A stretch of 64,000 bases of DNA from positions 1,791-65,790 of the forward strand of contig CAYWRH010000005.1 in NCBI GenBank assembly GCA_964460435.1. The letters run 5' to 3'. Below the pieces are notes generated by a model. The model saw only the letters and a list, made by a program, of their open reading frames with translations, ran no database searches and was not told where the DNA came from. The stretch comes from an uncultured Desulfatiglans sp. (GTDB lineage Bacteria > Desulfobacterota > DSM-4660 > Desulfatiglandales > HGW-15). Each line of letters begins with the position of its first letter. Positions within the stretch are counted from its first letter, which is position 1. Positions 460 to 43,784 of this stretch are shown here, piece by piece. A program made the position numbers and the translations under genes.

Positions 460-1815
460 ATGATATACCAGAAGCGATATTACAGCGAGAACAGCATTCA
501 TGATTCCGGATTGAATATAATAACTGTTACCCCTGCATTGACAGGAAAGCCTGAGATGTGTCTGACCTGCCACCAGGGCATAGAAGAGATCAGCTCTTCT
601 CACCCTGTGGAGTCTTTCGGGTGCATTGTGTGCCATGGCGGAAATGGAGAGACACTGGATAAAGAGTTGTCCCATAAATTTATGAGAGGAGTTGGAAACC
701 CTTCAGATTTAGGCGTGGCAGGTAAAAGCTGTGGAACAGGGCCAGAGGGTATTCAGTGCCATAATGGAAATAAAGAAGAGTGGAGAAACATGGTCGACAG
801 GGTTGAGCGGAGCCTGCAGGCAACATATGCGGGCGCCATCGAAGCTGTGCAGTTTACATTTAATGTCCCAAGACCCCCTGAAACAAGGTATGGTGTAACT
901 CAAGTTATTGATAGTAATGTAGCCACTTTTGGTTTTCCTGGCGAGTTAACCGGTATTTACGAAAAAATAAAAAATGATAAATTGTCAGGCCTCCTTCATC
1001 CAATCGAGCAAAAGTTTTTGACAAACTGCATCAGCAACGGATGCCATCTTTATTCTGAGGCCCCTGCTGATAAATATTATCACCGATCACAGGGGTGCGC
1101 AGCGTGTCACATACCCAGATCAAAGAGAGGATTGTATATGGGAAATGATGTGACAATCTCTAAAAGTGAATCCGGACATATGGAATTTCATAAGATTACC
1201 ACGGCAATACCCTATTCAGTATGCAACTCATGCCATAACAGAGGTGTTTATTCCCTCAGACAGATGCAATTTCTCAAGAGGACTGATCTTGCGGCTGATG
1301 ATATTGAATCAATTCCTTCAGAAAGTATGCGCAGAAAAGAGTATTATCATCCGATGACTCTTTATGCAAAATGTGAACTGACACTTGATTGTGTGGACTG
1401 TCATACTCATAATGAAATAATGGGGAACGGGGATATCTTTCCCAACAAAAAGGCTGCCGTAGAAACCCGGTGCCTTGACTGCCACGGTACAATCGAGGCT
1501 GAACCTGACTTTGAGATTATTAAGACTATAGATCATCGCGATGCCTTTATTGCCGGTAAAAATCCATATATCAGGCCTGAAGCCGGTGATGTTGTCGCAG
1601 TAACAAAAAAGGGGACGCTTCGACCGTCAGTAAAAAAAGTAAACGGCATATGGCAGATGGTTTCAAAGGTTGACGGGAAGATTTACCTGATTCCGATAGT
1701 AAAAGGCTCATCATGCAAACAGGATGTTAAGGAACAGGAGGCCCTTTATTGTCAGAGATGTCATGATATTGGCGAAAATTCTAAAACCGGAATGAAAAAT
1801 AGATGGAAATACTAA
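460..1815 (+). CDS. multihaem c-type cytochrome (7 haem motifs)
   Basis: Seven CxxCH motifs are present (CLTCH, CIVCH, CAACH, CNSCH, CVDCH, CLDCH, CQRCH). The gene lies between the cytochrome b-like and Rieske genes. There is no obvious signal peptide after ATG 460, so the start is uncertain. Confidence 0.8.
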   Translation: MIYQKRYYSENSIHDSGLNIITVTPALTGKPEMCLTCHQGIEEISSSHPVESFGCIVCHGGNGETLDKELSHKFMRGVGNPSDLGVAGKSCGTGPEGIQCHNGNKEEWRNMVDRVERSLQATYAGAIEAVQFTFNVPRPPETRYGVTQVIDSNVATFGFPGELTGIYEKIKNDKLSGLLHPIEQKFLTNCISNGCHLYSEAPADKYYHRSQGCAACHIPRSKRGLYMGNDVTISKSESGHMEFHKITTAIPYSVCNSCHNRGVYSLRQMQFLKRTDLAADDIESIPSESMRRKEYYHPMTLYAKCELTLDCVDCHTHNEIMGNGDIFPNKKAAVETRCLDCHGTIEAEPDFEIIKTIDHRDAFIAGKNPYIRPEAGDVVAVTKKGTLRPSVKKVNGIWQMVSKVDGKIYLIPIVKGSSCKQDVKEQEALYCQRCHDIGENSKTGMKNRWKY

Positions 1816-2312
1816 AAAAAATATTTCAGCCCTATAAAACCAGACGGGATTTTTTGAAAATAACCTCAGCAGTTGCTGTTTCAGGGGCAATAGCAGCACA
1901 TCTATGGATTGCTGTGCGGTATCTGACCGGCCCATCTCCCATAGAAAACAACAGGGAACAGAAGGTTGGAAATCCTGACAAATTTAAGGAGCGCATCACA
2001 TTTGCTGCTGAACCAAATGTCTTTATCCTGCGGGATGGAAAGAGGTTCAAGGCGATTTCTGCAAAATGCACCCATCTTGGGTGTACATTGAAAGTGGTTC
2101 AGAATGATTTAAAAGCAGTATCAGGAAAAGGATCAGGTTTTGAGTTCCATTGCCCATGTCATGGCTCGAAATTTGACTCCTCAGGTGAAAGAATTGCAGG
2201 CCCGGCCCGGAAGCCGATGCAGTTTGTTCAGATAACGCTAAGCCGTGACGGAGAAGAGTTGCTGATCAATAACCACATGCCTGTTGATTCAGGTTATTTT
2301 CTGGAGTTATGA
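1803..2312 (+). CDS. Rieske [2Fe-2S] protein with twin-arginine/anchor N-terminus
   Basis: Rieske boxes CTHLGC and CPCHGS are present. The N-terminus has a TRRDFLK motif followed by a hydrophobic helix. The gene overlaps the upstream gene by 13 nt. Confidence 0.85.
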   Translation: MEILKKIFQPYKTRRDFLKITSAVAVSGAIAAHLWIAVRYLTGPSPIENNREQKVGNPDKFKERITFAAEPNVFILRDGKRFKAISAKCTHLGCTLKVVQNDLKAVSGKGSGFEFHCPCHGSKFDSSGERIAGPARKPMQFVQITLSRDGEELLINNHMPVDSGYFLEL

Positions 2313-16639: not shown

Positions 16640-17197
16640 ATGATATGGAATTCCAGAACTGCCTATTTAAAAAGACAGTTAAAATATTTTTATCTCAGGC
16701 TGCTGCATCTCAAGGGCGAGCCACATGAGCTTGCGCTTGGTATGGCTATAGGTATCTTTGCCGGCATGATGCCGATACTCCCCTTTCAGATTGCCCTTGC
16801 TGTGGCTATTGCACTCTGTTTCAGGGCAAGCAAGATAACTGCCGCAATCGGGACATGGATAAGTAACCCTTTTAATTGGTACTTTGTATACCTCCTGGAT
16901 TACAAAATCGGCTCCTATCTGCTGGGCCTTGAGGGCGGGCATGAAATTATAAAGAAGATAATGGCTGCAATTAATCGCCATGATGAGGTATCGGTTATCT
17001 GGAATACCCTTTTTTCTTCAGGTTTTGAAATTGGTTCAGCGCTTTTAATAGGGGGTATTATAACCGGCCTTGTTGCCTGCGTGCCTTCCTATTTTATCTC
17101 TTTATGGATATTCCAGAAGGTGAAGATCTGGAGGGAGAAGAGAAAAGAAAAAAAGTCTGCCAGAACAAACCGGAGAATGAGGGGAGATAAACGCTGA
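16640..17197 (+). CDS. DUF2062-like membrane protein
   Basis: The motif GEPHELALGMAIGIFAGMMPILPFQ and several TM helices are typical of DUF2062, from memory. Confidence 0.55.
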   Translation: MIWNSRTAYLKRQLKYFYLRLLHLKGEPHELALGMAIGIFAGMMPILPFQIALAVAIALCFRASKITAAIGTWISNPFNWYFVYLLDYKIGSYLLGLEGGHEIIKKIMAAINRHDEVSVIWNTLFSSGFEIGSALLIGGIITGLVACVPSYFISLWIFQKVKIWREKRKEKKSARTNRRMRGDKR

Positions 17198-19084: not shown

Positions 19085-19123
19085 GGGCCCTGATAAACCC
19101 TTTTTTTGTCAGGGCCCATTTTT
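19085..19123 (+). terminator. intrinsic terminator
   Basis: GGGCCCTGA (19085-19093) pairs with TCAGGGCCC (19109-19117), followed by ATTTTT. Confidence 0.7.
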
Positions 19124-19188: not shown

Positions 19189-19330
19189 GACGTATGCAAA
19201 TTGTCCCATTACGGGGGTCGGCATATCAGGGCAAATGGTATGAACAGCCTGAAAAAGGCAAAATTTAGCGTTAAACCGATCAATTCATTTGAACGGGAGT
19301 ATTAAGGACATTTAATCGAGGTTTTATAAA

Positions 19331-20692
19331 ATGAAAATCAAAACAGCTTTTTTCTCAATGGCGGTAATCGCACTCTTTTCTCTCATTGTAATTTCAGTAA
19401 CATCGGGCACAGAAGGAAATAAAAGGATAGTGCTGGCATACAGCAATAATGTCGAGGGGTATCTTGAACCGTGCGGGTGAGCTGACACCGGTGAGATGCT
19501 CGGCGGGCTCTATAAAAAAACTACATATCTTAATGGATACAAAAAGACAGAAAAGAACCTGGTTATCGTAGATTCAGGTGACCTGCTCAATGAACACACC
19601 CAAATAAAAGAATCCTTTATGCCTACTGCAAAACTTAAGGCCGAATTGATAACCAGGGTCAATAAGGATATTGGAATCGATGCAATAAATGTAGGTGAGC
19701 TTGAGCTGGCTCTAGGGACCGATTTTCTGAAGGAACTTGAGAAAAGGTATGATGTCCCATTTGTTTCAGCCAATATTGTGAATGATAAAAATGAGCTTCT
19801 ATTCAAGCCATATGTGATAAAGCAGATTGATAATATTAAGGTTGGCATAATCGGCATTATGGGAACCACAAATGATGTTGCAAAACCATTTGGTGATATT
19901 GCCGGCTCCTCATTATCAGTGCTTAACCCATTGGAAACAGCAACAGCCAGGGTGGCTGAGCTCAAGGATAAGGTGGATTTTGTGATTGTCCTCACACATC
20001 AGCACATGGGCCAGAACTGGATCATTGCCAGGAAGATAAACGGCGTTGATGTGGTTGTTGGCGGACACCACAAACAGAGGCTTGAAACCCCCTATGAGGC
20101 CAATAATACATATATAGTACAGACAGGCGAGAAGGGGCAGTATCAGGGCATGCTTGTAATAGAAAAGGCTGCTGATGGAACCAAGACTGTTACAAATACC
20201 CTTGTGCCCTATAATGACAAGATAGCCAACGATGCAAATGTAAAGGCCATGATTGATGACTTCAATAAAGAGGTTAACAAGCTTTATACCACTCAGGCTG
20301 GAGAGGCTGTGAAAGATGAGGCTGTGACTTTAAGGGCCGCCTCATGCGGTGAGTGTCATGCTGATGCATATGATATCTGGCAGAAGAGCAAACATGCAAA
20401 GGCATTTCAGACACTGGTAGATAAGCAAAGGCAGGTTAATCCTGACTGCCTTGTCTGTCATACAACCCGTTTTGAAGAGGCAGGCGGCTTTACCATGAAG
20501 GCACAGGAAAAGGAATTAAGGAATGTCCAGTGCGAATCTTGCCATGGCGACCGGACTGAACACCTGAAAGACCCGAGTAACGTATCACAGGTTAAACCGG
20601 GTGTGGCTCTCTGTTTGAAATGCCATACCGAACACAGGTGCCCGGATTTTGAGAAGGAATATCAAAAGGAATGGGAGAAGATTAAACACTAA
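19331..20692 (+). CDS. UshA/metallophosphoesterase-like protein fused to a tetrahaem cytochrome c, with in-frame TGA at 19478-19480 (candidate selenocysteine)
   Basis: ATG 19331 has a GAGG RBS and encodes a signal peptide. It is in the same frame as the listed ORF 19496-20692, and the single TGA gives LEPCG-U-ADTGEMLGGL. Metallophosphoesterase-like motifs DSGDLL and VVGGHH are present. The C-terminus has four CxxCH motifs (CGECH, CLVCH, CESCH, CLKCH). Confidence 0.6.
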
Positions 20693-20724: not shown

Positions 20725-20759
20725 AGAAACCCTGTCTGAAAAGGCAGGGTTTCTTTTTT
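20725..20759 (+). terminator. intrinsic terminator
   Basis: AGAAACCCTG (20725-20734) pairs with CAGGGTTTCT (20745-20754) and runs into a T-run. Confidence 0.75.
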
Positions 20760-27123: not shown

Positions 27124-28929
27124 TCATGAAAAGTCTTCATGCTGAAAAAGATACCCTCTTGCCTTTAGTAATGCAGATAAAGAAAAGATAATAGGGTATA
27201 GCCTTTCATGATACCATAACCTTGCAAAATAAAGGCCTATTGGGCTTGGGGGCAGTGTTTCATGGCTGTTAACTCTTTCAATCAATGCCTCTGATCCATT
27301 CAAGAGCGCCTTTTTGAGAGCATCAGCCAGATTATCGGATAGACCATCAATAGCAGCGCAGCCGGAAATGGCATCAAGGGCAAGGGCGGTTTCTTCAATT
27401 GTGCCTGGCGCATCCTTGTCTCCTCCCCATGTGCCATTTTCCTTTTGAACCTTGATCAGCCATTTAAGGCCTTTAACAAGTGATCCTTTCATGGGGGAAA
27501 ATTCATCTGATTTCATGAGGGTTAGGTGAGAAATGACCTTTGCTGTTCCATAAACAGGGTTTTCCATCCCTTTGGCATGTTCATTGCCGAACCACAGAGG
27601 CGCCCATGAGCCATCAGGCCTCTGCGCATTTTGTAAAAACCTGAAACCCTTCTGAATAGCCCTGCTCACAGACCTCTGTAATGGCTGGTTAATGCGGGGC
27701 ATCCATGAAGCCCATGCGGCAAGCGCATGGGCTGTAAGGTCTGTGGCGCTTTTGTCAAATGGAAGTCTGCCCCACCCTTTGCAGAAGGTGGGTATGCCCC
27801 CATCACTGTTCTGGAGGCCAATGAGCCATGAAACTCCCGCCTCAACTGCATCAAGGGAATATTCTGCAACAGGGTCAAGTGTCAGTATGGCCATGAGGGC
27901 GCTTGCTGTGTCATCTGCATCAGGCACTCCCCCGGGGAGATCTGTCCATGCCCATCCTCCAGGATCAGCCCCGGTATATGGATGCATCTCCCTCTGCTGC
28001 TGGTCAAGAAGCCATGTTAAAATGGATCTTTGCATAGCTTCACTGATATTGTCTTTCTTTAACGCCCGGACAGCCATTGTGGAGACCCAGGTGGAAAGAT
28101 TTGTGTCTATAGGCCAGCTCCCGTCTTTTCGCTGGCTGTGAAGCAAAAAATTAACCCCCTTTTTTGTAACAATGTGCCCTCTGTGTCCGCAGCCCGCAAG
28201 GCTCATGACAACAAAGCTGGTCAGGGGCGTAGCCTCCAGAAAGCCACCGTTCTCAGGCTGGATTTTTGTCAGGACATTAAGCGATTTAGAAAGCGCCAGT
28301 CTGCGGATGCACCTCTGAACTGGATTACAGGGCGGGCGATGAAAAAATATAGCCTGGCCTATTGCGATAAGCGCTGGAAGGGCATAGCTTACAACAGGCA
28401 GATTAAGCCATTTGAACCATTGCCTGGGAAGAGCCGCAAGTTCAAAGGGAAGGCCATGAAGCTGCTTCCACCCATCCACCCCCAGTCTGCCAGCAAGGGC
28501 ACACATTGTGAGAATAGGAATGGAGAATGTCCTGTCAGGGCCATATGCTGTTAATATTGATCTAACAATATCATCCGGATCAATGGAACCTGCGATGCTG
28601 CATATATATTTTTCGCAGGCATCAAGGGAATCCTTTTTGGGTGATGCAACTGTCATGGCGCTGTAAACAAGAAGGGTGGTGCTCAGGTTGCTTTTGCTTA
28701 TAGTTGTATCGCCCCATCCTCCATCAGGGTTCTGGTTTTTTATGAGCCAGCTTAGGCCCGAATCAATATTTGACTCATAGGCCTTTTTATCCGCGGAGGC
28801 CAACGCAAAAAGTGCGGTAGCTGTGGAAAGGGCGCTGCTGCTCAACTCTCCGCTCCAGTAACCTTTATCATTGCTTTCGGCGATGAGCATCTGTTTTAGC
28901 CTAATAATGGTAGAGTCAATATCTGTCAT
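27124..28929 (-). CDS. squalene-hopene-cyclase-like class II terpene cyclase
   Basis: DADDTA matches the DxDDTA protonation motif. At least five QW-type repeats are present (QNPDGGWG, QRKDGSWP, QNSDGGIP, QRPDGSWAP, QKENGTWGG). The N-terminal GYWSGEL is as in SHC. Confidence 0.75.
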   Translation of the reverse strand: MTDIDSTIIRLKQMLIAESNDKGYWSGELSSSALSTATALFALASADKKAYESNIDSGLSWLIKNQNPDGGWGDTTISKSNLSTTLLVYSAMTVASPKKDSLDACEKYICSIAGSIDPDDIVRSILTAYGPDRTFSIPILTMCALAGRLGVDGWKQLHGLPFELAALPRQWFKWLNLPVVSYALPALIAIGQAIFFHRPPCNPVQRCIRRLALSKSLNVLTKIQPENGGFLEATPLTSFVVMSLAGCGHRGHIVTKKGVNFLLHSQRKDGSWPIDTNLSTWVSTMAVRALKKDNISEAMQRSILTWLLDQQQREMHPYTGADPGGWAWTDLPGGVPDADDTASALMAILTLDPVAEYSLDAVEAGVSWLIGLQNSDGGIPTFCKGWGRLPFDKSATDLTAHALAAWASWMPRINQPLQRSVSRAIQKGFRFLQNAQRPDGSWAPLWFGNEHAKGMENPVYGTAKVISHLTLMKSDEFSPMKGSLVKGLKWLIKVQKENGTWGGDKDAPGTIEETALALDAISGCAAIDGLSDNLADALKKALLNGSEALIERVNSHETLPPSPIGLYFARLWYHERLYPIIFSLSALLKARGYLFQHEDFS

Positions 28930-29831
28930 GGAATATCCGCAAGATAACCCAAGGCAAGAAGCCCGTAATAGGTATATTCACAATCCACTATGGGATCAGC
29001 CCAGTTCCCGCTGAATCCGCCCTTTTGATTCCACAGGCTGTCAAGAAAATCAAGATGCAGTTCGCGCCGGATCTTTTTAGTGTTGCTGTATGAAAGGGCT
29101 TGAAGGGCGGTTGCAGTGCTTAATAGATCAGGCATATTTAAGGGGCTGTCACTTTTAAAGGCGCAGAAGCCCCCGTTTTTACTTTGACGGTTCATCAACC
29201 ATTCGTGAGCCCTTTCAGGCAAAGGGTAAGAAAGCATATGATACGAACAGATGGCGGCTGCTGTTGAAGGGGTGGTTGATATTCCCCCGGCCTCTTCATT
29301 TGCAAAGCCGCCATCATCCATTTCAAGCCTTTTAATGCAGTTAATAATCGGTTCAGTATCAGACAGGGCAATATCAATATCCTGGCATATGGCAAGGGTG
29401 AGAAAGGCGCCGTAGAGATTGCCATTATTATCAGATCGACTGGTGCTGAAGCCCCCGTCAGCACACCTGAGCATATCAAGCCGTCTTTTCACCCCCTCCT
29501 TTATGCCGGAGTCAACAGGATAGGGTGAAATATCAGCCAGATTTCTGTATGAGCGTGCGAGGCTATAAAGATGAACAAGGTCAAGTTCGCTAATGTTGTC
29601 AAAGCTGTCAAGGTATCTTTTAAAAAGATCAACAGGCAGGCTGCATCCAAGGGAAATAGCCAGTTCAATACCAAATGCAGTATAGTAAAGATCGCTTTTA
29701 TTGTCACGGCCCAAAAAACCCCCGTCCGCACATATCTGGTTCATCACATACCTCCTCACAAGGTCTGTGGATTTATTGAGCAGTTCCGGGGCCCTGGTTA
29801 GGGCCTGAAGCATCTTGTGTCTTAATGTCAT
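28926..29831 (-). CDS. prenyltransferase beta-subunit-like (PFTB-repeat, alpha-alpha toroid) protein
   Basis: Five (D/N/K)GGF repeats are present (ADGGF, ADGGF, DDGGF, KNGGF, QKGGF). The stop overlaps the cyclase start in an ATGA arrangement. The true start may be internal (about 29747), because the listed start overlaps the upstream gene by 59 nt. Confidence 0.6.
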   Translation of the reverse strand: MTLRHKMLQALTRAPELLNKSTDLVRRYVMNQICADGGFLGRDNKSDLYYTAFGIELAISLGCSLPVDLFKRYLDSFDNISELDLVHLYSLARSYRNLADISPYPVDSGIKEGVKRRLDMLRCADGGFSTSRSDNNGNLYGAFLTLAICQDIDIALSDTEPIINCIKRLEMDDGGFANEEAGGISTTPSTAAAICSYHMLSYPLPERAHEWLMNRQSKNGGFCAFKSDSPLNMPDLLSTATALQALSYSNTKKIRRELHLDFLDSLWNQKGGFSGNWADPIVDCEYTYYGLLALGYLADIP

Positions 29832-31482
29832 TGCAACATCCCATCAAGTCAAAGTCACCAAATATTTTACTTATTACCCGGCGCAGAAGCCCTTTAAGGG
29901 CAGGGTTTTTAAGTTGTGTTATTGTATCAATCGCCCTTGTCTTTACCTCTCTCATCAGATCACGCACACCATTATCAATCTTGAGATCCCTAAAGATACT
30001 AACTATTCTGTCAAATTCATGCTCTCTCACATATTTCTCCTGCCATGCCCTCTGAAGGAGCTTACGGGCCTGGCCGCTCGCCTGTTCTGTGGCAAGGGCC
30101 GTTACAATGGAGGGACGATCAAGCAGCCGGTGCATATCCTCTTCCGGCATCAGATAGTCCTCAAGATCATCGCCTATCTGGTATGCTACGCCTATGGCCT
30201 CACTGTAATGATGAAGAGAGTCTAATGTGGAATCATCAGCGCCTGCCAGCATGGCGCCAAGGGTCAGCGCAACATCAAATGCCGGGGAGGTCTTTTTTCT
30301 GAAAATTTCGAGAACCTGGCCGGAAGAAAGGCATCCTGGGTTTCGTGACCAGACAAGCTCCTCACCCTGGCCCAGGCACATAACACGGTGTGCATGGGCA
30401 GCAATGTTAATCAATGCTGAACGCAGATCCGCACAGGTGTCGAGTTCAGAGAGTAGCTGATATCCCCAGCCGATAAGCAGATCTCCCGCGTTCAGCGCAA
30501 CAGGGACCCCGTATTCTGCATGAAGGGTTTTTTTGCCATAGCGTATCTTATCGTCATCTTCTATGTCATCATGGATAAGCGATGCCTTGTGAAAACATTC
30601 CACTGCCACAGCCAGTTTTTGTATGTTTGACTCAGGGATTTTCCTGTGAGGATCAAGGGCAGAAATGGCGCAGGCTGCCAGAAATGGCCGCCACCTTTTT
30701 CCCTTAAGCGCCATCCATTCTATTGCAAGCGCCTCTGTCTGCGTGCCTTCAGGCTTTATAAGCAATTCCAGCGCCTCGCTTATGAACCATGCGTTAACCC
30801 TGGCGTATTCCTTTTTAAGATCAAGCCGCGGTATTAAAGGATTATCGGATATTTCATAAACAGCCTCCCACAGCCAGTCTGTATCTATTGCCGTGTCTTT
30901 ACACCCGTCATAGAGCAGGGGAACAGCTATTCCTGGCACAGCGCCAGCCTCCATGTATGGAAAGACCTTTTCAAGCGTTGCGAGGCAGCTTACCCCTATA
31001 ACCGCCTCGATTCTGCCTGTTTCAATAAGAGACATAACGATTGGAGAACCCTCGGCAATAAGCACAGCATACCCAAGCTCCTCTGCCTGTCGCTTAAAAT
31101 CATGTATGATGCATGACCCGCAGTGTTCACACAGAAGGCCGATCTCATCTGTCTGTGCCCCGCAGTTTATTGAAGAACTAAGGCACTTTGGCATGAGCAA
31201 TAGACGCTTGCTATACGGGGTTGCCGCAACTGTTTCACGCCACAGTGCATTGTTAATAAGGACAGCGGCAAAGTCTGCATATTGGATTGGCAGGTTATTC
31301 TCCTTAAGCACGCCTGTCGCATGATATTTAAGTTCATTGATCCCAAGCGGGGCGCAGAGTTCATTTTTCTGTACATATTCAGTTATTAACTGACGCAGAT
31401 CCTCCCGCTCCTTCAGGGTGGGCGGCACCTCTTTCTGGGTTGGATGAATGTTGTATATTGATGCAGGGACAAATTGGTTCAT
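29773..31482 (-). CDS. DUF116-like Cys-rich domain fused to a trans-polyprenyl diphosphate synthase
   Basis: The N-terminal half (LLLMPKCL...CEHCGSC...IGVSC) resembles DUF116. The C-terminal half has the FARM motif LIHDDIEDDD and the SARM motif GDDLED. The start at 31482 forms an ATGA overlap with the radical SAM stop, and the listed start at 31509 is less likely. Confidence 0.75.
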   Translation of the reverse strand: MNQFVPASIYNIHPTQKEVPPTLKEREDLRQLITEYVQKNELCAPLGINELKYHATGVLKENNLPIQYADFAAVLINNALWRETVAATPYSKRLLLMPKCLSSSINCGAQTDEIGLLCEHCGSCIIHDFKRQAEELGYAVLIAEGSPIVMSLIETGRIEAVIGVSCLATLEKVFPYMEAGAVPGIAVPLLYDGCKDTAIDTDWLWEAVYEISDNPLIPRLDLKKEYARVNAWFISEALELLIKPEGTQTEALAIEWMALKGKRWRPFLAACAISALDPHRKIPESNIQKLAVAVECFHKASLIHDDIEDDDKIRYGKKTLHAEYGVPVALNAGDLLIGWGYQLLSELDTCADLRSALINIAAHAHRVMCLGQGEELVWSRNPGCLSSGQVLEIFRKKTSPAFDVALTLGAMLAGADDSTLDSLHHYSEAIGVAYQIGDDLEDYLMPEEDMHRLLDRPSIVTALATEQASGQARKLLQRAWQEKYVREHEFDRIVSIFRDLKIDNGVRDLMREVKTRAIDTITQLKNPALKGLLRRVISKIFGDFDLMGCCNDIKTQDASGPNQGPGTAQ

Positions 31483-33050
31483 ACCCTTTCCTCCATTCTG
31501 CCAGAGCAACCTTTTTCAGCATATGGCTGCATCTTTCCTGCCATCCTGCGGAATGCCATCCTCCAGTTTGCTATCTCTGCCCGGCCCATTACCTGCAGGG
31601 TCATGCGCTTCAGTAAAGATACCCCCCCGGCACGCTCATTGTCCCACATGAGTCTTGGAACCCGCCTGAAATTTATTTCATAGCAGGTACGGTATAACTC
31701 AAGATGATCAGCACGCATATTTTTGATGGAAAAATTGCCGGTAGCAAAAATATCCTCTTCAAGGATCGGTTCATAAAATACAGGGAAAACCACAAGCTCC
31801 TGGCCTTCAAATCCCTTTACCAGTCTGAGTGTATCAGCAACATCAGAGGGCTCTTCACCAGGCAGACCGAGAATAATACTTATTACCGGAAAAAAGCCGG
31901 TACGGGTCAACCTGCCAACTGCCTCGCCTGCCATTTCAGGCCAGTCATCAGGAGAAAAGGGGGCTATCTTTCCGGGGCTGTTGGCTGCCACCAGCCTGCC
32001 GTTTGCGCTTTCAACGCCCATGTTTACCCATAGATAGCGGGCCGGTTTTTCCCATGTTAAAAGATGCCTTATCTCCCTTAATTCCTTTTCGTCAAGCTGC
32101 AGCACACTTGTGACATTGGCGTGATCTATCTGCATAAAAGAAAGACCCTTTAGCTGTTTCATCTGTGTGAGCAGAGCAGCAAGGGCATTGAAGTCAGGCC
32201 TTAATGAAGAAGAGCCGTAACGGAAAAAATCCTCGCTACCGCTTACTACTGACCTTACTCCTGCTGCGAGGTTTGTCTCAAGGTCGGCCATGATGAGATC
32301 ATTAGAAAGATGTCTCATTCCCTTATGGGCCATGCTGCAGAAGCGGCATCCCCGGCCGCAGCCCCTTGAGAGTTCAATGATCCCCATCATTGATGCGCCG
32401 CATATGGGCTGAATCCTGTGTGCCCCTGTTCCATCTGCAATAACCTGATGGTCTGCAAATCTGCCTTCGAGCAGATCAATGACAAGCTCAGGCCCTTTAT
32501 CCTCAAAATATCCCTCATATATGATATCAATGCCAAGTTCAGCCGCTTCATCCGGGTAGGCTAGAACTTGCCATGCACCTGTCCCACCAAAGAGAACCTT
32601 AAACGGGTAGCGTTCCTTTTCTGCCCTGAGCATAAGAAGAGTTTCCCTGGTCCATTTTTTTGTATAGAGCTCACCATTCCAGAATGCGCTTGTGGTTGTA
32701 TTGCTCATGCCGTGACCGAGCGGATCACTTGAGCTGAAAAGCACAAGCTTTACCCATGGCCCTAATAGATCAGGCAGCCGTTCCGGTGTGGTGCATACCA
32801 CATCGTCAGCATCAAGGCCTGCGGAGGCACGAAGGGAAGATTCAATACGGCGAAGCCCGAGAGGGGCTGTATGGGCACGCCCCTGCGCATCGGTGTGTAC
32901 CTTTGGACTCAATAAGTGGCGCATCAGCGGCCCTGGAACCTGCGTGGTCTGCATGGTGGCAAAGATGCCTTCGAACAGGATGCTGTAGGATGCAGAAAGG
33001 GTGCGGTCTGCAACCAGGATAACAGAGGGTTTTAAGGCGCTTTTATTCAT
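31479..33050 (-). CDS. radical SAM protein with N-terminal B12-binding-like domain
   Basis: The motif CGRGCRFC (CxxxCxxC) is preceded by a Rossmann-like N-terminal domain. At 523 aa its size and architecture match class B radical SAM enzymes. Confidence 0.8.
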   Translation of the reverse strand: MNKSALKPSVILVADRTLSASYSILFEGIFATMQTTQVPGPLMRHLLSPKVHTDAQGRAHTAPLGLRRIESSLRASAGLDADDVVCTTPERLPDLLGPWVKLVLFSSSDPLGHGMSNTTTSAFWNGELYTKKWTRETLLMLRAEKERYPFKVLFGGTGAWQVLAYPDEAAELGIDIIYEGYFEDKGPELVIDLLEGRFADHQVIADGTGAHRIQPICGASMMGIIELSRGCGRGCRFCSMAHKGMRHLSNDLIMADLETNLAAGVRSVVSGSEDFFRYGSSSLRPDFNALAALLTQMKQLKGLSFMQIDHANVTSVLQLDEKELREIRHLLTWEKPARYLWVNMGVESANGRLVAANSPGKIAPFSPDDWPEMAGEAVGRLTRTGFFPVISIILGLPGEEPSDVADTLRLVKGFEGQELVVFPVFYEPILEEDIFATGNFSIKNMRADHLELYRTCYEINFRRVPRLMWDNERAGGVSLLKRMTLQVMGRAEIANWRMAFRRMAGKMQPYAEKGCSGRMEERV

Positions 33051-33897
33051 CCATTTTCCCGCCCGAAGAGGCCTTTTTATGAATACGGTCTAGATCGGCA
33101 GGCGAGAGCGCCTGCAATACATCCATGGGGATATCGAGCTGTTTGTGCAGCATTTCAAGCATATTTGCCTTAGGCCCTGGTTCAGGAGAAAAACGCTCAC
33201 CCCGGCTGCTTCTGTTACGCAGCATGGCATAGATATCCTTTTCCTGCAAAAGATCAATCCTCGCCGAAGAAGGGGTGATCTTTGATTCATCAATTTCATC
33301 CCCGTTTATGGGCGATTGATTTATCTTTGGAAAAATAATTGCCCTTGCCGGACAGACACGGGCGCATGCAGGGCAGTTGTTTTTGCAGTTATCAGGCTGT
33401 GAAACCCTGACATCTCCATCATCATCAACAGAGTAAACGCCAAAGAGACAGAAGTTAAAGCAGAGCTTGCAGCGCCGGCAGCGCCTCATGTCTATTACAG
33501 GGAACCAGGGTTCCTGCCTGCCGCTGTGTTTAATAAAATCCATTTTCCGGCCAGACTCAACTGAATTGCGCTCTTTTACGGCATCCATAATCTTTTCAGG
33601 TGAAAGGGAGCGGCAGTTAAGAATCCTTACAGAACAATCAAGCGGAAGAGGTGCTTCTGCCATATCAAACAGGGAGCGTATGGCCCTCTCATAACAGGCG
33701 ATGATAGTAAGTTCAGGGCACTGCGCCCATTCCCTCAATAAAGGGTCATGCCGGGCTGCCAGCCCGCACAGATCATCAACTGCGATGACTTCTAAACCGG
33801 ATTGACCGAGATTCTGCAATATGTATTCACAGGATTCTTTTGAAACAAGCTCCCTGTGAATGCATCTGCAGTATATTACCAAATCCTTTCCGGACAT
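33043..33897 (-). CDS. 4Fe-4S dicluster ferredoxin-domain protein
   Basis: Cluster motifs CRRCKLCFNFC and CKNNCPACARVCP are present. The stop overlaps the radical SAM start. Confidence 0.7.
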   Translation of the reverse strand: MSGKDLVIYCRCIHRELVSKESCEYILQNLGQSGLEVIAVDDLCGLAARHDPLLREWAQCPELTIIACYERAIRSLFDMAEAPLPLDCSVRILNCRSLSPEKIMDAVKERNSVESGRKMDFIKHSGRQEPWFPVIDMRRCRRCKLCFNFCLFGVYSVDDDGDVRVSQPDNCKNNCPACARVCPARAIIFPKINQSPINGDEIDESKITPSSARIDLLQEKDIYAMLRNRSSRGERFSPEPGPKANMLEMLHKQLDIPMDVLQALSPADLDRIHKKASSGGKMDE

Positions 33898-33999: not shown

Positions 34000-34089
34000 C
34001 TGCGCCCTGAACCATGAGCCTTGTGCCTTGAGCCCTTTACCTGTTTTTTAACCCTCGAACCCTGGAATCCTCGACCCCTTGAACCCCTA
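34000..34089. repeat. two adjacent degenerate tandem repeats (7-bp x6, then 8-bp x5) directly 3' of the minus-strand stop
   Basis: The 7-mers at 34000-34041 are ctgcgcc ctgaacc atgagcc ttgtgcc ttgagcc ctttacc. The 8-mers at 34050-34089 are aaccctcg aaccctgg aatcctcg accccttg aaccccta. A T10 run lies at 33987-33996. Confidence 0.6.
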
Positions 34090-35385
34090 TTTTAAAACCA
34101 CACACTTCATCTGCTTCTGGTCCCTTATAATAAGTTTTCCGTCACTCAATGCAAGCGGCGCCCATGACTGTTTTGTATCAAGCAGTTCAGCCTTCGCAAG
34201 CACCCTGAATTCTGTGGGGTCTGGCTCAATAAGGTATAATGTCTTTTCTCCGTCGCTGCTTATTATTATATCGTCGGCAAGTATATACCCGCCCTTGTCA
34301 AAGCCGGGTTTTCTTTTGGTCTTCCATTTAATATTGCCTGAAAGATCCATGCAGCAAAGGCCATCCTTCGTGGAGTTGTCACTGCATTGGCTGTATAGAT
34401 GCCCTTTATAAAAAATTGCAGGGTGAACATGGGAGATGAACTCTTTTGTAGCCATTGCCTCATTTACCTTATAGGAACCGCCTTTTTTATCGATCTGCAG
34501 AAGGACTGACCCTGCATTATACCCTCCTGTAATAAAAATCTGGCTGTTACTGACCTGTGTGGCATTGGGAACTGGAATACCGCACTGCCAGCCTTCATAT
34601 GTCCATAAAAGGGCGCCGTTTTTAGGGTTATATCCAAGGACAGCCCCCTTGACAGAGCCGTCACGGCTGCTGGCAGTTATCATGATCAGATGATCTTCTC
34701 CTGAAATTTTTGCTATGGAGGGCGAAACATAACATGCCTCTCCTTTAAGTTTACCTGTTTTCCAGATAATGTTTCCGTTCTCTTTGTCATATGCAACCAG
34801 ACCTGTCTCTTTGGTCTGCGAAGCAACTATTACCATGTTCTTATAGACAAGGGGATTCTGGGCAATGGCCCATGTAGGATACTCACGACCGCCAAAATCG
34901 GTCCAGATATTTTTATTCCAGAGTGGCTTACGGGTATTTATGTCCAGACAGTAAAAGTTGCCGAAAAGGTCACAGATGTATATCCTGCTGCCATCAATAG
35001 TGGGTGTTGACCTTGTGCCGTCATTGCTGACCGACCCCGGCGCCTCATTGGTGAATTGCCACTCCTCCTCTCCTGTCATGAGATCAAGGCAGCGGAGAAT
35101 GTTTGTCCTGTCTTCAACACGGTCATAAACATATACCTTGCCCTTGCTTATTGCTGCCCCTCCAAACCCTTCGCCAAGTGGGATTGTCCACAACACCTTT
35201 GGCCCTTCGGCAGGCCAGGAGCGTAACAGACCCTTTTCATTGGATACGCCGTTTCTGTCTGGGCCAAGGTACTGGGGCCAGTCAGAGGCAGAAACCTGAT
35301 TAAAGACAAAAAGGATAAAAACAGAGACAACCATTGCTATCTTTTTCATAAAGGCTCCTTTCACTAAGTCCTTCAAATTAACCAT
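34087..35385 (-). CDS. PQQ/BamB-like beta-propeller repeat protein, secreted
   Basis: A signal peptide is followed by WPQYLGPDRNG and repeated blade motifs of the type 'VY...dg.l.clD..tGe..W'. It is a paralogue of 42374-43780. Confidence 0.7.
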   Translation of the reverse strand: MVNLKDLVKGAFMKKIAMVVSVFILFVFNQVSASDWPQYLGPDRNGVSNEKGLLRSWPAEGPKVLWTIPLGEGFGGAAISKGKVYVYDRVEDRTNILRCLDLMTGEEEWQFTNEAPGSVSNDGTRSTPTIDGSRIYICDLFGNFYCLDINTRKPLWNKNIWTDFGGREYPTWAIAQNPLVYKNMVIVASQTKETGLVAYDKENGNIIWKTGKLKGEACYVSPSIAKISGEDHLIMITASSRDGSVKGAVLGYNPKNGALLWTYEGWQCGIPVPNATQVSNSQIFITGGYNAGSVLLQIDKKGGSYKVNEAMATKEFISHVHPAIFYKGHLYSQCSDNSTKDGLCCMDLSGNIKWKTKRKPGFDKGGYILADDIIISSDGEKTLYLIEPDPTEFRVLAKAELLDTKQSWAPLALSDGKLIIRDQKQMKCVVLK

Positions 35386-35574
35386 GGCCGGAATTTACCA
35401 TATTGTTGTTTTATTGTTCAATATTATTCGGGCCTCTTCATTTACATATATGTTTATGGTGAAACCATGATAATTATCTCTATATATACGATTTTTGTTG
35501 AATATTTTAATCGCAGTCCTTAACTTGTTAGAAATTAAAAAAATCATCTACCAGAACAGCTTTTTGAGGGTTTT

Positions 35575-36771
35575 ATGATGGGCAATATATCCCGTACGGT
35601 TTTATGGACAACATTGGCCGTGATTATTTGTTTTCTACTGGCATGGGGTATAAACAGCCATCGCACACAAAGTAAAATACCTGTCAATGAGCATGTGCAG
35701 CAGGGCATTAAGGTTCCGGCCAACCCGGGGGGCAACTGGCCCCAGTTTCATGGCAATCAGTCACAGAGAGGTTTTGTTACGGGTGAACTCCCGGACAGTC
35801 TTAATCCTGTATGGAGATTCAAGGCAGGGGCAGGGGTCAAATCATCCCCTGCAATTGTTGATAATAGGGTATATATCGGTTCCTCAGATAAGCATATGTA
35901 TGCCATAGATGTTCTAACAGGCAAGCAAATCTGGGCAGCACTTCTTGACGGTGAGGTAGAGGCATCTCCCACGGTTATCGACAAAAGGGTCTATATCGGG
36001 ACGCTTGCCGGAACCCTCTATGCGCTTGATTCAGAAACAGGTTCTGAAGGCTGGCGATTCAGCGCCGGCGACAAGCTGACCGGCGGGGTAAACTGGTTCA
36101 GGGGCGAGAGCAACAGACTCTATCTGCTTGCGGGCAGTTACGATTCAATTCTTTATTGTATTGATGCTGTTACCGGAAAGGAGGCCTGGCAATATGAAAC
36201 AGGCAATTACATCAACGGCTCTCCGGCAGTGAATGACAGATACTGTGCCTTTGGCGGATGCGATGCTGTGATACATATTATCAATCTAACCGACGGCAAA
36301 AGGGCCGGTGAGATCGATACGGGCGCTTATATTGCCGCATCTGCCGCTATACAGGATGACCTTGTTTTTGTCGGCAATTATGAGGGTGAGTTATTAAAGG
36401 CATCGCTCTCCACACATGAAACCATATGGCGGTATAGGATTAATAAGGGGGCATTTATCTCTTCCCCTGCTGTTACTGATGACGCAGTAGTAATAGGAGG
36501 GGGAGATATGAATATACACTGTATTGATATAAAAACAGGTATGGCCAGGTGGACATATAAAACCCTGGATGCAGTAAACAGTTCTCCTGTGATTGTCGGT
36601 AACAGGGTTCTTGCCGGGAGTGATGACGGCAGGTTATATATGTTAAACATGGCAGACGGCAAGCTCATATGGTCATATGAAACCGGCAGATCAATAACCT
36701 CTTCCCCTGCTGTGGCAGATGGCATGGTCGTAGTGGGGTGTGATGACGGGATGGTATACTGTTTCAAATGA
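35575..36771 (+). CDS. PQQ/BamB-like beta-propeller repeat protein
   Basis: NWPQFHGN is followed by about 8 repeats of the type 'RVYIGS.DK.MYAID..TGK..W'. An N-terminal hydrophobic anchor is present. Confidence 0.75.
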   Translation: MMGNISRTVLWTTLAVIICFLLAWGINSHRTQSKIPVNEHVQQGIKVPANPGGNWPQFHGNQSQRGFVTGELPDSLNPVWRFKAGAGVKSSPAIVDNRVYIGSSDKHMYAIDVLTGKQIWAALLDGEVEASPTVIDKRVYIGTLAGTLYALDSETGSEGWRFSAGDKLTGGVNWFRGESNRLYLLAGSYDSILYCIDAVTGKEAWQYETGNYINGSPAVNDRYCAFGGCDAVIHIINLTDGKRAGEIDTGAYIAASAAIQDDLVFVGNYEGELLKASLSTHETIWRYRINKGAFISSPAVTDDAVVIGGGDMNIHCIDIKTGMARWTYKTLDAVNSSPVIVGNRVLAGSDDGRLYMLNMADGKLIWSYETGRSITSSPAVADGMVVVGCDDGMVYCFK

Positions 36772-38066
36772 AGATAATACAGATAACACCGGGGTCAGGG
36801 GATAATTTTTACTGTGAGAACTGCCTGAGAGATCAGGCCCTTGTCAGGGCGCTTTTTGCTCAGGGTCATGAGATATTAATGGTGCCCCTTTATCTGCCCA
36901 TTAAACTCGATTCGCAAAAGGTGACTATCAAGGCGCCCATTTTTTACGGGGGCATCAATGTCTATCTGCAGCAGAAATTGGGGTTGTTCCGCAGGAGCCC
37001 CAGGTGGCTGGACAGACTGTTTGATAATCGTTCACTGCTGTCAAGGGTCTCAAAAAAGGCAGGCATGACCCGTTCCCGTGACCTTGGTGAAACCACTATA
37101 TCCATGCTTAAGGGCGAAAATGGTAATCAGGCAAAGGAGCTGGAACGGCTCATTGAATGGCTGTCAAACGATAATGAAAGACCTGATGTGATAATACTCT
37201 CCAACGTGCTTCTGGGAGGGCTTGCAGCGACTCTGAAAAGGCGTCTGAATGTGCCTGTGGTCTGTATGCTTCAGGATGAGGAGGCTTTTATTGACAGCAT
37301 GGATGAGCCTTACAGCAAAGAGGTGTGGAGGCTCATAATGGAATGCTCCCTTGAGATAGATGCCTTTATATCTGTAAGCAGGGCATACACAAAACGTATT
37401 GCCCCAAGGCTTGGTATTTCAGAAGAGAAGATCAATACGGTGTACATGGGCATAGATTTAAATGAATACCCGCCTGCCATAAAGGCGCCTGAAAGGCCGG
37501 TTATAGGTTTTCTTTCACGCATGTGCCCCCTGCGCGGGCTTGATATACTTATTGATACATTTATACTGATCAGACAGAACCCTGAACTGAGGATGTGCCG
37601 GTTACAGATATCAGGAGGCAGATCACAGGCTGATGAGCCTTTTTTAGGAAATATGAAAAAGCGCCTTGAAAAGGAGGGCATTATAAATGATGTGACATTT
37701 ATGCCCGAATTCCTTGGCGAGGGTCGCAGAGAGTGGTTAAAGAGCATTTCTGTGATGTGTGTCCCTGAAAGGGAGGAGGCGGCTTATGGCCTTTTTGCCA
37801 TTGAGGCACAGGCAGCAGGGGTGCCTGTTGTTGTGCCAAAGATAGGCATATTCCCTGAGATGCTTGATCTGACAAAAGGAGGCCTGATTGTTGATCCAAA
37901 TACACCTCAAAATTTTGCAGCAACCCTTACCCCCCTTTTGCTTCACCCTGATATAGCATTCAGCCTCGGACAAAAGGGAAGAAAGGGGATAGAGGCCCAT
38001 TTTGATATACAGAAGAGCTCAAAGAATCTGGTCGGGGTGCTTGAAAAGGTTGTAAAGATGGCATAG
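36768..38066 (+). CDS. glycosyltransferase, GT4 (GT-B fold) family
   Basis: The C-terminal motif is PEREEAAYGLFAIEAQAAGVPVVVPKIG, an E-x7-E type. The start forms an ATGA overlap with the upstream propeller gene. Confidence 0.7.
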   Translation: MKIIQITPGSGDNFYCENCLRDQALVRALFAQGHEILMVPLYLPIKLDSQKVTIKAPIFYGGINVYLQQKLGLFRRSPRWLDRLFDNRSLLSRVSKKAGMTRSRDLGETTISMLKGENGNQAKELERLIEWLSNDNERPDVIILSNVLLGGLAATLKRRLNVPVVCMLQDEEAFIDSMDEPYSKEVWRLIMECSLEIDAFISVSRAYTKRIAPRLGISEEKINTVYMGIDLNEYPPAIKAPERPVIGFLSRMCPLRGLDILIDTFILIRQNPELRMCRLQISGGRSQADEPFLGNMKKRLEKEGIINDVTFMPEFLGEGRREWLKSISVMCVPEREEAAYGLFAIEAQAAGVPVVVPKIGIFPEMLDLTKGGLIVDPNTPQNFAATLTPLLLHPDIAFSLGQKGRKGIEAHFDIQKSSKNLVGVLEKVVKMA

Positions 38067-38131
38067 AGCATAGCGCATAGGGCATAGCGCATAGAGCATA
38101 GGGCATAGCGCATAGGGCATAGGGCAAAGAG
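38062..38131. repeat. 7-bp tandem repeat CATAGNG x10 beginning in the stop codon of the glycosyltransferase
   Basis: Units: catagag catagcg cataggg catagcg catagag cataggg catagcg cataggg cataggg caaagag. Confidence 0.85.
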
Positions 38132-38206
38132 AAAAGAGTAGGATTTTTTAGCTGGGTAAAAGGCTCCCCGCCCCATTGTGCGTGAGGGGTTGGGGGAGGG
38201 GAAGGA

Positions 38207-38899
38207 ATGAAATTCATGCTGGAGTTAATTGATGTAACAAAGGGCTATGGCAGCCCGGGTTTGCCAGGATATGTGGCTGTCCTGAACTCCATAAACCTCA
38301 AACTTAAAGCTATGGATGCTGTTGCCGTGCTTGGGCCGTCAGGGTGCGGGAAGAGCACACTGCTTAATATAATCGGGGCACTTGATAAACCTTCATCGGG
38401 GCAGGTGAAGTTTATGGGGCAGGATCTCTCTACCCTTGATGAACCTGCCCTTGCCCGTATCAGGAACAAGGAGATCGGGTTTGTATTTCAGATGCATCAT
38501 CTTTTGCCCCACTGCACTGTGCTTGAAAATGTGCTTGTGCCGACACTCGCTTACCCTGACAGGGCCAAGAGCAGTTCACTTAAAGAGAGGGCTGTCAGCC
38601 TGATAGAAAGGATGGGGATCAGTGACTGTATGAATCGTCGCCCAGGTGAGATTTCAGGCGGAGAGAGGCAAAGGGCCGCAGTTGCAAGGGCCTTGATCAA
38701 TTCTCCAAAACTGCTTCTGGCCGATGAACCGACCGGGTCGCTTGATCATGAAACAGCAGTAAGCGTGATGGATCTATTAATCAGCCTTAACCGCACAGAG
38801 AATATCACCCTTGTTGTTGTGACCCATGCAAATGACCTGGCGCAGCTGTTTAAAAGGGTTTTCACAATTACTAAAGGCAGGCTTTCAGATGAAAAATAA
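38207..38899 (+). CDS. ABC transporter ATP-binding protein (MacB/LolD/YbbA-type)
   Basis: Walker A GPSGCGKST, signature ISGGERQR and Walker B LLLADEPTGSLD. Confidence 0.9.
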   Translation: MKFMLELIDVTKGYGSPGLPGYVAVLNSINLKLKAMDAVAVLGPSGCGKSTLLNIIGALDKPSSGQVKFMGQDLSTLDEPALARIRNKEIGFVFQMHHLLPHCTVLENVLVPTLAYPDRAKSSSLKERAVSLIERMGISDCMNRRPGEISGGERQRAAVARALINSPKLLLADEPTGSLDHETAVSVMDLLISLNRTENITLVVVTHANDLAQLFKRVFTITKGRLSDEK

Positions 38900-38931
38900 C
38901 AGCTCATGGAAATAGCACTGGGGCATACAGA

Positions 38932-41900: not shown

Positions 41901-42252
41901 CGGCCTTGGCCTTATCCTTGGTTGTATTGGTCTGGGGCTTATTGTTGCAAGAAACATTTTAGAGCGTCAGGCCGAGCTTGCCATGATGAGGGCAGTGGGT
42001 TTCAGCAGAGGCTCCATTATGAAGATGGTATTTTATGAACACCTGTACCTTCTGGGAGCAGGCCTAATATCAGGGTTTATTTGTGCCTTGATTTCTGTTA
42101 TACCCACAATAAAAACAGTATCAGGAGGGCTTCCCGTCGGGCTGGTACTGATTGTGACCACCCTGACGGGGGTAAGCGGGGTTATCTGGGTGCTGGCATC
42201 AATAATTATTGCACTGAAAGGGGAGATATTGGCCCCTTTAAGAAATGAATAA
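38932..42252 (+). CDS. ABC transporter permease with two FtsX-type modules and two large extracytoplasmic domains (1106 aa)
   Basis: Two sets of FtsX-like TM bundles (about aa 490-620 and aa 980-1100) are each preceded by a TM helix and a soluble domain of about 250-430 aa. It follows the ABC ATPase gene. Confidence 0.8.
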   Translation: MTIVRLAIRSIIFYYRMNIALILSASVATATLSGALFVGDSVKATLKHAFYARLGKTVFAVAPGDRFFTEGLSYRLMKQGIETAPVLSMPGMITRGDGAVRVNRVNVLGIDGRFFSLSMAGKAPGELEDGAVLINTALMRRLASGTESVNEVVLRFDNPPLISRNIVLAPLKESTISARLPVTGMVDDNHFGRFSLESNQAEPLNIFVPISWLQREIRREGAINLLLIRNNPLKYDASKIDRAISSEWQLPDAGAELKSRGEDAVELVSSRVFIDTALSDAALKAEPDAIPVLTYFVNGLKAGDRVTPYSMVTAAERKGEFEDIFPEGMKDDEIVINEWLADDLEAKVGDQLIIKYYRPDGWQRLEEAQRAFRICRIIPIEGAASDRTLAPELPGLSDAENCSEWDASLPINLDLIRDKDEAYWDTYRGTPKAFVTLAAGKEMWASSYGTFTAIRFKAGPKEKNAIEENMIRRANPANIGLSVIPVYETGIKASAGGTDFGQLFLGLSMFLIISGVILTWLLFSFSIEGRKGQTGMLLAIGFPVKRLRRLYLAEGLFIALSGAIIGTLFSLLYTRALIFGLSNAWQDAVAGMTVQYSVTIASVCIGFFSGFIIAIVAMAFTLKRQMRLGAHDLLAGNEPVCTNKGKTNRKGKAGWLIPALFLLGAAMIIILGISGGKSAETGAFFGAGMLMLLSIILMIRTVFALYGSRHSSRLISINSLALRNNARKRGRSLAVISMLACGLFMIVAVSANRKNPYAGSEIPSSGTGGFSLYAESSVPVFHDLNSLSGREQWGMDSSVLKGTDILGLRVLEGDDASCLNLNRVNNPRIIGVKPDFLTKRKAFSFQTLDIPEYKNSPWNILEHNYGHNTIPAVGDYPTVYWGLGKETGEMLVYKNSRGEEVKVRIAGMIESSILQGSIVISEENMLEYFPEVEGFRAWLIDTPINKGSKVMEHLTKRMADAGLSVETSAERLDIFNRMENTYLNIFLVLGGLGLILGCIGLGLIVARNILERQAELAMMRAVGFSRGSIMKMVFYEHLYLLGAGLISGFICALISVIPTIKTVSGGLPVGLVLIVTTLTGVSGVIWVLASIIIALKGEILAPLRNE

Positions 42253-42260
42253 AAGAGTGT

Positions 42261-43780: not shown

Positions 43781-43784
43781 AATC

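Follow-up and report, generated by a model that had tools for sequence, protein, structure and literature searches.

Does the TGA triplet at positions 19478-19480 of this Desulfatiglans contig end one gene, or does it encode selenocysteine (Sec) within another? The window, meaning the whole stretch of 64,000 nt that was analysed (contig CAYWRH010000005.1), contains at this point a short coding frame opening at ATG 19331-19333 and, beyond the TGA, an open reading frame (ORF) at 19496-20692 that carries four haem-attachment motifs of the CxxCH type. A preliminary description had proposed that the two are a single selenoprotein gene with a C-G-U motif, encoding a UshA-like protein joined to a tetrahaem cytochrome c. 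That proposal was supported by the alternation of Sec and Cys at this column among homologues, by the score against the curated family model NF041198, by a constrained hairpin downstream of the UGA and by the ordinary use of TGA as a stop elsewhere in the window. We conclude that this TGA very probably does encode selenocysteine, in a four-haem protein that is exported, and we are highly confident that the gene 19331-20692 is a UGA-Sec member of NF041198. The features on which the argument draws are as follows.

19085-19117, + strand: intrinsic-terminator-like hairpin after the upstream cstA gene (named by Pfam), a 13-bp stem followed by a T run, found by pattern scan; 5' boundary of the transcription unit
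19318-19321, + strand: Shine-Dalgarno-like GAGG, from sequence reading
19331-20692, + strand: full selenoprotein coding sequence, 453 codons including UGA-Sec codon 50, plus stop (NF041198, 347.9 bits; full-length Cys homologues share the start MKIKT...)
19331-19405, + strand: signal peptide of the Sec export type, about residues 1-25, with no twin-arginine motif and no lipobox (by inspection; equivalent N-termini are kept in homologues)
19424-20290, + strand: 5'-nucleotidase/UshA-type metallophosphoesterase-fold domain, about residues 32-320, with a degenerate metal site (PF00149, PDB profile, Foldseek, AlphaFold2)
19472-19480, + strand: codons TGC GGG TGA for Cys48-Gly49-Sec50 (column with TGA at 56 and TGC/TGT at 22 non-redundant sites)
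19478-19480, + strand: UGA very probably read as selenocysteine (column comparison; third-codon-position bias on both sides)
19494-19511, + strand: conserved hairpin resembling a selenocysteine insertion sequence (SECIS), with core GCUC 19498-19501/GGGC 19505-19508 and apical loop GGC 19502-19504, 21 nt past the UGA
20333-20689, + strand: tetrahaem cytochrome c domain, c554/NrfB-like (PF13435, 5.6e-17), with CxxCH at 20345-20359, 20447-20461, 20531-20545 and 20612-20626
20725-20759, + strand: terminator-like hairpin with a 12-bp stem (20725-20736/20743-20754), loop TGAAAA and a T run, recognized by eye and absent from the pattern-scan list; 3' boundary

The reading frame and its family

Direct reading of the sequence showed that the frame opened by ATG 19331-19333 continues to TAA 20690-20692 with the TGA as its sole internal stop, as the preliminary description had stated. 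Its read-through product is 453 aa long, with no frameshift or further stop over 453 codons; it starts MKIKTAFFSMAVIALFSLIVISVTS..., reads NNVEGYLEPCG-U-ADTGEMLGGL around the UGA, and is predicted to cross the Sec codon as ...EPCG-U-ADTGEMLGGLYK. The GAGG motif at 19318-19321 lies at a 9-nt spacer from the ATG, and the four CxxCH motifs (C339, C373, C401 and C428 of the read-through product) fall downstream of the TGA, both in agreement with what had been described before. The signal peptide proposed from 19331 gained support from inspection and from the conserved N-termini of homologues. Equally correct was the statement that ATG 19496 (Met56), at which the mechanically listed ORF starts, has neither a signal peptide nor a spaced ribosome-binding site: GGUGAG directly abuts it, leaving no spacer. 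Since the four CxxCH motifs, invariant in 30 sequences, need haem attachment in the periplasm and only the start at 19331 gives a signal peptide, export is required and with it the 19331 start.

The 147 nt 5' of the TGA differ from relatives chiefly at codon position 3 (for example 3/2/18 over codon positions 1/2/3 against the homologous locus L083), as the downstream part does, and this bias on both sides of the TGA indicates that both sides are translated in one frame. No other convincing candidate emerged when TGA-joined frames were sought over the whole window. The gene is monocistronic, standing between the terminator-like hairpins at 19085-19117 and 20725-20759.

With C substituted for U in the query sequence, the protein scored 347.9 bits (E = 9e-104) against the NCBIfam model NF041198 ("UshA_like_PCGU", UshA-like (seleno)protein; NF041198.1), for which the curated cutoff is 275. 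This match aligns residues 12-278 with profile positions 3-266 of 519, and the P-C-G-[U/C] motif of the family is present as E-P-C48-G-U50. When the C-terminal 187 aa (residues 267-453) were scanned alone they matched positions 344-517 of 519 with 138.2 bits, indicating that the tetrahaem domain is already part of the curated model and that the window protein belongs to the family as a canonical representative over its full length. A reading of the haem fusion as a novel variant of the UshA-like family was rejected because the model already spans it. The window protein shares with the family the P-C-G-U motif, the layout of phosphoesterase fold plus tetrahaem domain and the alternation of Sec and Cys, with no essential difference, although no sequence found exceeds 88% identity to it and the SECIS hairpin of its clade is weaker. 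Among GTDB species representatives, 482 NF041198-type loci were confirmed. The same family was listed as "COG0737, UshA-like", motif CxU, comprising 76 Sec and 92 Cys sequences, in the 2008 selenoproteome table of the Global Ocean Sampling (GOS) data (Zhang & Gladyshev 2008, PMC2398784), and it also appears in reviews of 2022 and 2026 (PMC9312934, PMC13188914). The finding is therefore already known: the family is curated, and what we report is an annotation repair and not a discovery.

The UGA column was compared at the DNA level across 80 genome loci, 18 metagenome loci and 9 loci of Cys-form or odd proteins. Alignment with homologues, the check that the preliminary description had proposed, placed Cys or Sec at this column throughout the family: the 78 non-redundant homologous sites comprised 56 with TGA and 22 with TGC/TGT in exactly this position. 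Genome sites at which the motif could be located (n = 54) had TGA in 39 and TGC/TGT in 15 cases and span Desulfobacterota, Acidobacteriota, Eisenbacteria, Planctomycetota and others, and the metagenome relatives had TGA in 18 of 18. The same TGA in the same column of 56 non-redundant genes from several phyla is more than chance would produce. At the protein level, 19 of the best 120 matches were full length (~452 aa), and EPCGC stood at the UGA column in 18 of these 19, so that the PCGC given for Cys homologues in the preliminary description was right; about 100 of the 120 begin MLGGL or METGEMLGGL, directly past the column. The lone "EPCGW" entry (P0068, DNA locus L103) has TGA in its DNA, which the database pipeline had translated as Trp. 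The column thus varies only between Sec (TGA) and Cys, never Trp or Gly. The closest relatives are metagenome-assembled genomes (MAGs) of Desulfatiglans-like and Thermodesulfobacteriota affiliation, and the nearest, at L081 (82%), L083 (87%), L002, L003 and L082, all have TGA at this codon.

Several homologues were found in company with one another or with Sec-related genes. One Desulfatiglans MAG (locus-tag prefix GX654) has both a Cys paralogue (P0004) and a shortened Sec-type paralogue (P0009). Four Planctomycetota loci (L035, L049, L051, L063) carry a Sec-form gene followed ~1.5 kb downstream by a Cys-form gene, and an Eisenbacteria locus (L065) carries two Sec-form genes in tandem. At L104:1-2859 a Cys-form homologue (TGT) lies directly 3' of a complete selB gene; alone among the Cys genes it has kept the Sec-type codons CUC-GGC-GGG-CUC, which may be a fossil SECIS left by a recent change from Sec to Cys. 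The Cys-form P0062 is flanked by a SelB WHD fragment and a UGSC-family gene. A 29%-identical homologue was also present on a contig of a MAG labelled Thermoplasmata archaeon (L014), where the C-x-[C/U] column was not located by the pattern used.

The hairpin downstream of the UGA

Published criteria for a bacterial SECIS (bSECIS; PMC13188914 Fig. 2) allow 3-9 nt for the apical loop and 4-16 bp for the upper stem, place G in the first two loop positions and set the UGA-to-loop distance at 16-37 nt, which we refer to together as criteria i-iii, and they further ask for an energy of at most -7.5 kcal/mol (criterion iv); according to the same review, a subset of bSECIS elements fails this model. 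The hairpin at 19494-19511 has a 3-nt loop (GGC), a stem of 4 bp and a spacing of 21 nt, all within criteria i-iii, and the stem reaches 7 bp when it is extended beyond the bulged U19497 by the pairs A19494-U19511, G19495-C19510 and A19496-U19509. Across the family, a hairpin within criteria i-iii was present at 56 of 56 Sec sites and reached -7.5 kcal/mol or lower at 41 of the 56 (median -10.9), whereas 11 of the 22 Cys sites had no such hairpin and three passed the energy threshold (median -0.35 kcal/mol; Mann-Whitney p ~2e-8, without correction for phylogeny). In all clades the loop opens with GG or GU.

In the near family the element takes the form GCUC-GGN-GGGC and sits on the codons of Leu-Gly-Gly-Leu, and its core was invariant in 27 of 27 aligned TGA genes. 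Codon choice and spacing over this element separate Sec genes from Cys genes as follows.

Leu codon CUC: Sec genes 30/30; Cys genes 1/11 (the other ten CUU)
Second Gly codon GGG: Sec genes 30/30; Cys genes 7/11
Next codon CUN: Sec genes 30/30; Cys genes 5/11
Spacing from the column to the Leu codon: Sec genes 21 nt in all; Cys genes 18 or 21 nt

The synonymous sites of CUC-GGN-GGG-CUN are thus frozen in near-family TGA genes and relaxed in Cys genes, and in the clade of the window the same freeze holds at third codon positions between +10 and +54. The pair G19495-C19510 (GAG...CUC) of the extension was present in all seven clade members with G at the first position and absent in all eight with A, a G/A switch that arose in two sub-clades.

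The preliminary description had pointed to a different hairpin, pairing 19479-19483 with 19496-19501. Such a structure does exist (GAGC 19479-19482/GCUC 19498-19501, with C19486-G19493 and A19487-U19492 inside), but it is not the conserved element, which is the one at 19494-19511. Its 5' arm is not conserved, relatives carrying GAAU or GACU, and it was rejected as a SECIS candidate because it is weak (-4.6 and -3.9 kcal/mol) and falls outside the SECIS spacing rule.

A number of results weigh against Sec insertion directed by the hairpin at 19494-19511. Its energy is -5.0 kcal/mol alone and -6.9 kcal/mol with the core enforced, short of the -7.5 kcal/mol of criterion iv, a value that none of the 15 sequences in the window's clade reaches, with energies of -2.8 to -5.8 kcal/mol. 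The Fisher and Mann-Whitney tests ignore phylogeny. No compensatory covariation was found, RNAalifold and pair counting recovering only the invariant 4-bp core; as this core never varies, covariation cannot be scored. Rfam gave no match at gathering thresholds over the whole window, and a permissive scan of 19400-19620 returned only chance matches. Finally, neither selA, selB, selD nor tRNA-Sec was found in the 64-kb window (ARAGORN; Pfam on ~47 ORFs), and the competence of the organism to make selenoproteins is presumed from its relatives only. Two further calculations were of little use: the significance of the single-sequence fold was uninformative (z = -0.57), and alifold applied more widely to the window's clade yielded no more than weak long-range pairing, which we did not trust.

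The window RNA folded alone favours yet another hairpin, at 19488-19506 (CCG.UGAG-AUG-CUCG.CGG, closed by GAGC/GCUC), which is mutually exclusive with the conserved one and, as the minimum free energy fold, reaches -12.7 kcal/mol with pair probabilities of 0.84-0.88. This too counts against the element at 19494-19511, and it raises the possibility that Sec is inserted but that the working SECIS of this clade is the hairpin at 19488-19506 and not GCUC-GGN-GGGC, a variant of the preferred explanation that differs from it only in the RNA element. The 19488-19506 hairpin, however, starts 15 nt past the UGA, outside the 16-37 nt rule, and its loop likewise departs from the bSECIS criteria. Its helices break in close relatives (A15 in GGA genes, A18 in GAA genes, G11 in AGC genes, GAAU in place of GAGC), and it leaves the invariant G30 and C31 (GGG, CUN) of all Sec genes unexplained. 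We therefore rejected it as the main SECIS and retain it as a minor rival that is unlikely to be correct.

Other readings of the TGA

If the TGA were a true stop, ATG 19331 would yield a 49-residue peptide and the ORF 19496-20692 would be translated separately from its own ATG. This is how gene callers treated about 100 of the 120 closest database homologues, with starts at MLGGL or METGEMLGGL; ATG 19496 does exist, and TGA serves as an ordinary stop elsewhere in the window. Against this, the product from 19496 would have no signal peptide despite its four invariant CxxCH motifs and their need for periplasmic haem attachment, and no spaced ribosome-binding site precedes it. The ATG itself lies inside the conserved hairpin, and Gln-type relatives have CAG there and hence no start codon. 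The 49 upstream codons are moreover under purifying selection in the same frame and are contiguous with the rest of the gene in Cys homologues. Independent translation of the two parts is therefore very improbable.

Reading the UGA as a sense codon would not by itself call for selenium: UGA could stand for Trp or Gly in a variant code, or be suppressed by near-cognate tRNA-Trp or tRNA-Cys. Near-cognate decoding of Sec-UGA under selenium limitation occurs in bacteria, and one pipeline did render the TGA of the homologue P0068 as W. Yet TGA terminates 16 of the 45 Pfam-supported ORFs of the window, which indicates that the organism uses the standard code (code 11), and an alternative genetic code was rejected on this evidence. 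The column alternates with Cys only, never with Trp or Gly, and a structured, synonymously constrained element follows the TGA in TGA genes only. Selenium-free read-through thus has very little to recommend it.

It is extremely improbable that the TGA arose through a fault of sequencing or assembly, or that inactivation by mutation recently turned a Cys (TGC/TGT) or Trp (TGG) codon into TGA in what would be an ordinary Cys protein or a pseudogene: Cys-form paralogues 72-76% identical do occur in related Desulfatiglans MAGs, but the closest relatives (L081, L083, L002, L003 and L082) all have TGA there, the window carries the Sec-specific CUC-GGC-GGG-CUC at 21-nt spacing where 10 of 11 Cys genes have CUU, and no frameshift or other stop interrupts the 453 codons.

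Domain architecture and possible function

With the TGA taken as a Sec codon, the protein consists of two domains behind its signal peptide. Pfam gave a weak Metallophos match (PF00149) and a Cytochrome_C554 match (PF13435). In a PDB profile search the N-terminal domain matched 3ivd, CD73 and UshA (E-value 2e-24), and Foldseek, run with the structure that AlphaFold2 predicted for P0002, a Cys homologue of 75% identity, placed residues ~32-320 with 5'-nucleotidases at a template modelling (TM) score of ~0.53, the core of the model having a predicted local distance difference test (pLDDT) score > 90. No Pfam match was obtained to the C-terminal substrate-binding domain of 5'-nucleotidases; the last 120 residues are instead a tetrahaem domain of the Cytochrome_C554 type, and the C-terminal part resembles cytochrome c554, NrfB and PDB 6i5b.

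Alignment to 3ivd and CD73 revealed a degenerate catalytic apparatus. In motif I (DxH) the Asp is replaced by N40 and the His by E42, at positions that are both variable across the family, and in GNHE the Asn is replaced by E123 and the catalytic His by L124; D84 (the Asp of GD), H223 and H246 are kept and invariant. The full set of metal and catalytic motifs of a competent 5'-nucleotidase (DxH, GD, GNHE, H, GH) is thus not present. The C-G-U loop comes right after the site of the lost motif I, and some distant members have lost more ligand positions yet retain C-G-U and the four haems. The degenerate apparatus and the position of the loop suggest that the protein is a periplasmic redox enzyme and not a phosphoesterase, an assignment that is much less certain than the family identity.

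Comparison with other known systems places the protein beside several of these without making it a member. It shares the N-terminal fold of the calcineurin-like UshA/CD73/5'-nucleotidase group (PDB 1ush, 3ivd, 4h1y) and retains D84, H223 and H246, but has a tetrahaem domain instead of the C-terminal nucleotide-binding domain and has motif I and GNHE replaced. The thiosulfohydrolase SoxB (TIGR04486; PDB 2wdc, 4uwq) is likewise periplasmic, belongs to the same fold superfamily and acts on a sulfur compound; its model was the second-best NCBIfam match (1.5e-29), but the score of 102.7 bits against a cutoff of 550 excludes membership, and SoxB, unlike the window protein, contains no haem and no Sec but retains a dimanganese site. 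NF049981, "UshA-like (seleno)protein family 2", also describes a Sec-containing degenerate UshA-like domain, but with CxxU in place of CxU and in a 262-position model without a haem domain, and at 24.2 bits against a cutoff of 140 the window protein does not belong to it.

The nearest functional parallel is MccSep / ExtKL (GSU2937-2936, NF040886) of Geobacter sulfurreducens, a periplasmic pentahaem Sec polysulfide reductase (PMC13510729) and the only experimentally characterized case of haem-wired Sec chemistry on a sulfur substrate. Like the window protein as read from its sequence, it is a periplasmic multihaem c-type protein with one Sec from an in-frame UGA at which gene callers split the gene. 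MccSep, however, has five haems, a Sec beside a Cys-ligated haem and no phosphoesterase-fold domain, whereas the window protein has four haems and carries its Sec within C-G-U in an N-terminal phosphoesterase-fold domain. Against NF040886 it scored 20 bits (21.6 bits for the C-terminal domain alone) with a cutoff of 250. MccSep is an analogue and not a homologue of the Sec-bearing part.

We propose the following course from mRNA to enzyme. The hairpin GCUC-GGC-GGGC, 21 nt downstream of the UGA and extended to 19494-19511 with a bulged U, would recruit SelB and Sec-tRNA(Sec) as in the standard bacterial mechanism, and these would decode UGA 19478-19480 as selenocysteine. The pre-protein would then be exported unfolded through the Sec pathway, its signal peptide cleaved and four c-type haems attached in the periplasm. 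In the least certain step, the haem chain may trade electrons with a selenenylsulfide-type Cys48-Gly-Sec50 centre acting on a small substrate. The most plausible substrate, to judge by MccSep and the SoxB-like fold as analogues, would be sulfur or another chalcogen species. Taken as a whole, we put forward only tentatively, and with more doubt than assent, that the family is a new type of periplasmic selenoenzyme in which a Cys-Gly-Sec loop replaces motif I of a dimetal phosphoesterase site and is wired to four haems, reducing or oxidizing a sulfur, selenium or other chalcogen substrate, and that the Desulfatiglans-like clade of the window uses an unusually minimal, sub-threshold SECIS (4-bp GCUC/GGGC stem, GGN loop).

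Three results count against this functional proposal. In the P0002 model the CGC loop and the haem domain have pLDDT < 50, so that AlphaFold2 gave no usable position for the Cys/Sec loop with respect to the metal site and the haems; no neighbour gene is conserved family-wide; and literature searches turned up no experimentally characterized member of the NF041198 family. Gene neighbourhood was set aside as a functional clue, synteny being found only with L002, L003 and L081 and involving unrelated genes (TamB, DUF2062, CstA, CheZ-like, FAD oxidoreductase). The DUF2062 gene, two genes upstream in the window (16640-17197), also lies directly upstream of a Cys-form homologue at L102:62-616; its occurrence in L002, L003 and L081 reflects lineage-level synteny only. 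Three other Cys-form homologues (L099, L100, L107) adjoin a gene for a MauE-family membrane protein (PF07291), accompanied in L099 and L107 by a BNR/PSII_BNR repeat protein and in L100 by a peroxiredoxin, and none of these neighbours is near the window gene.

Further genes were noted elsewhere in the window. Two adjacent Metallophos proteins of 782 and 589 aa (54134-56482 and 56651-58420, + strand), the first with an N-terminal hydrophobic segment, contain no CxxCH and show no apparent relation to the UshA-like gene. At 460-2312 (+ strand) the gene for a cytochrome c3-type multihaem protein of 451 aa precedes and overlaps that for a Rieske [2Fe-2S] protein. A terpenoid-type cluster occupies 27124-33897 on the - strand, with squalene-hopene-cyclase-like and prenyltransferase-repeat proteins, a DUF116-polyprenyl synthetase fusion, and radical SAM and 4Fe-4S proteins. 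The region 34087-48434 holds four PQQ_2/BamB-like beta-propeller proteins (34087-35385, 35575-36771, 42374-43780 and 46704-48434) among an ABC/FtsX pair and ferredoxin-like genes, and after it come a NuoE/NuoF-like fusion (48415-50775) and a GltD-like Fe-S flavoprotein (50745-52331).

For annotation, the correct gene is 19331-20692 with Sec at codon 50, and not the N-terminally shortened, signal-less ORF 19496-20692; about 100 of the 120 closest database entries suffer the identical shortening at the Sec codon. The gene itself is one more member of its family and nothing beyond that. Since MccSep has been shown to be a polysulfide reductase, the widespread and uncharacterized NF041198 family is a reasonable target for biochemistry.

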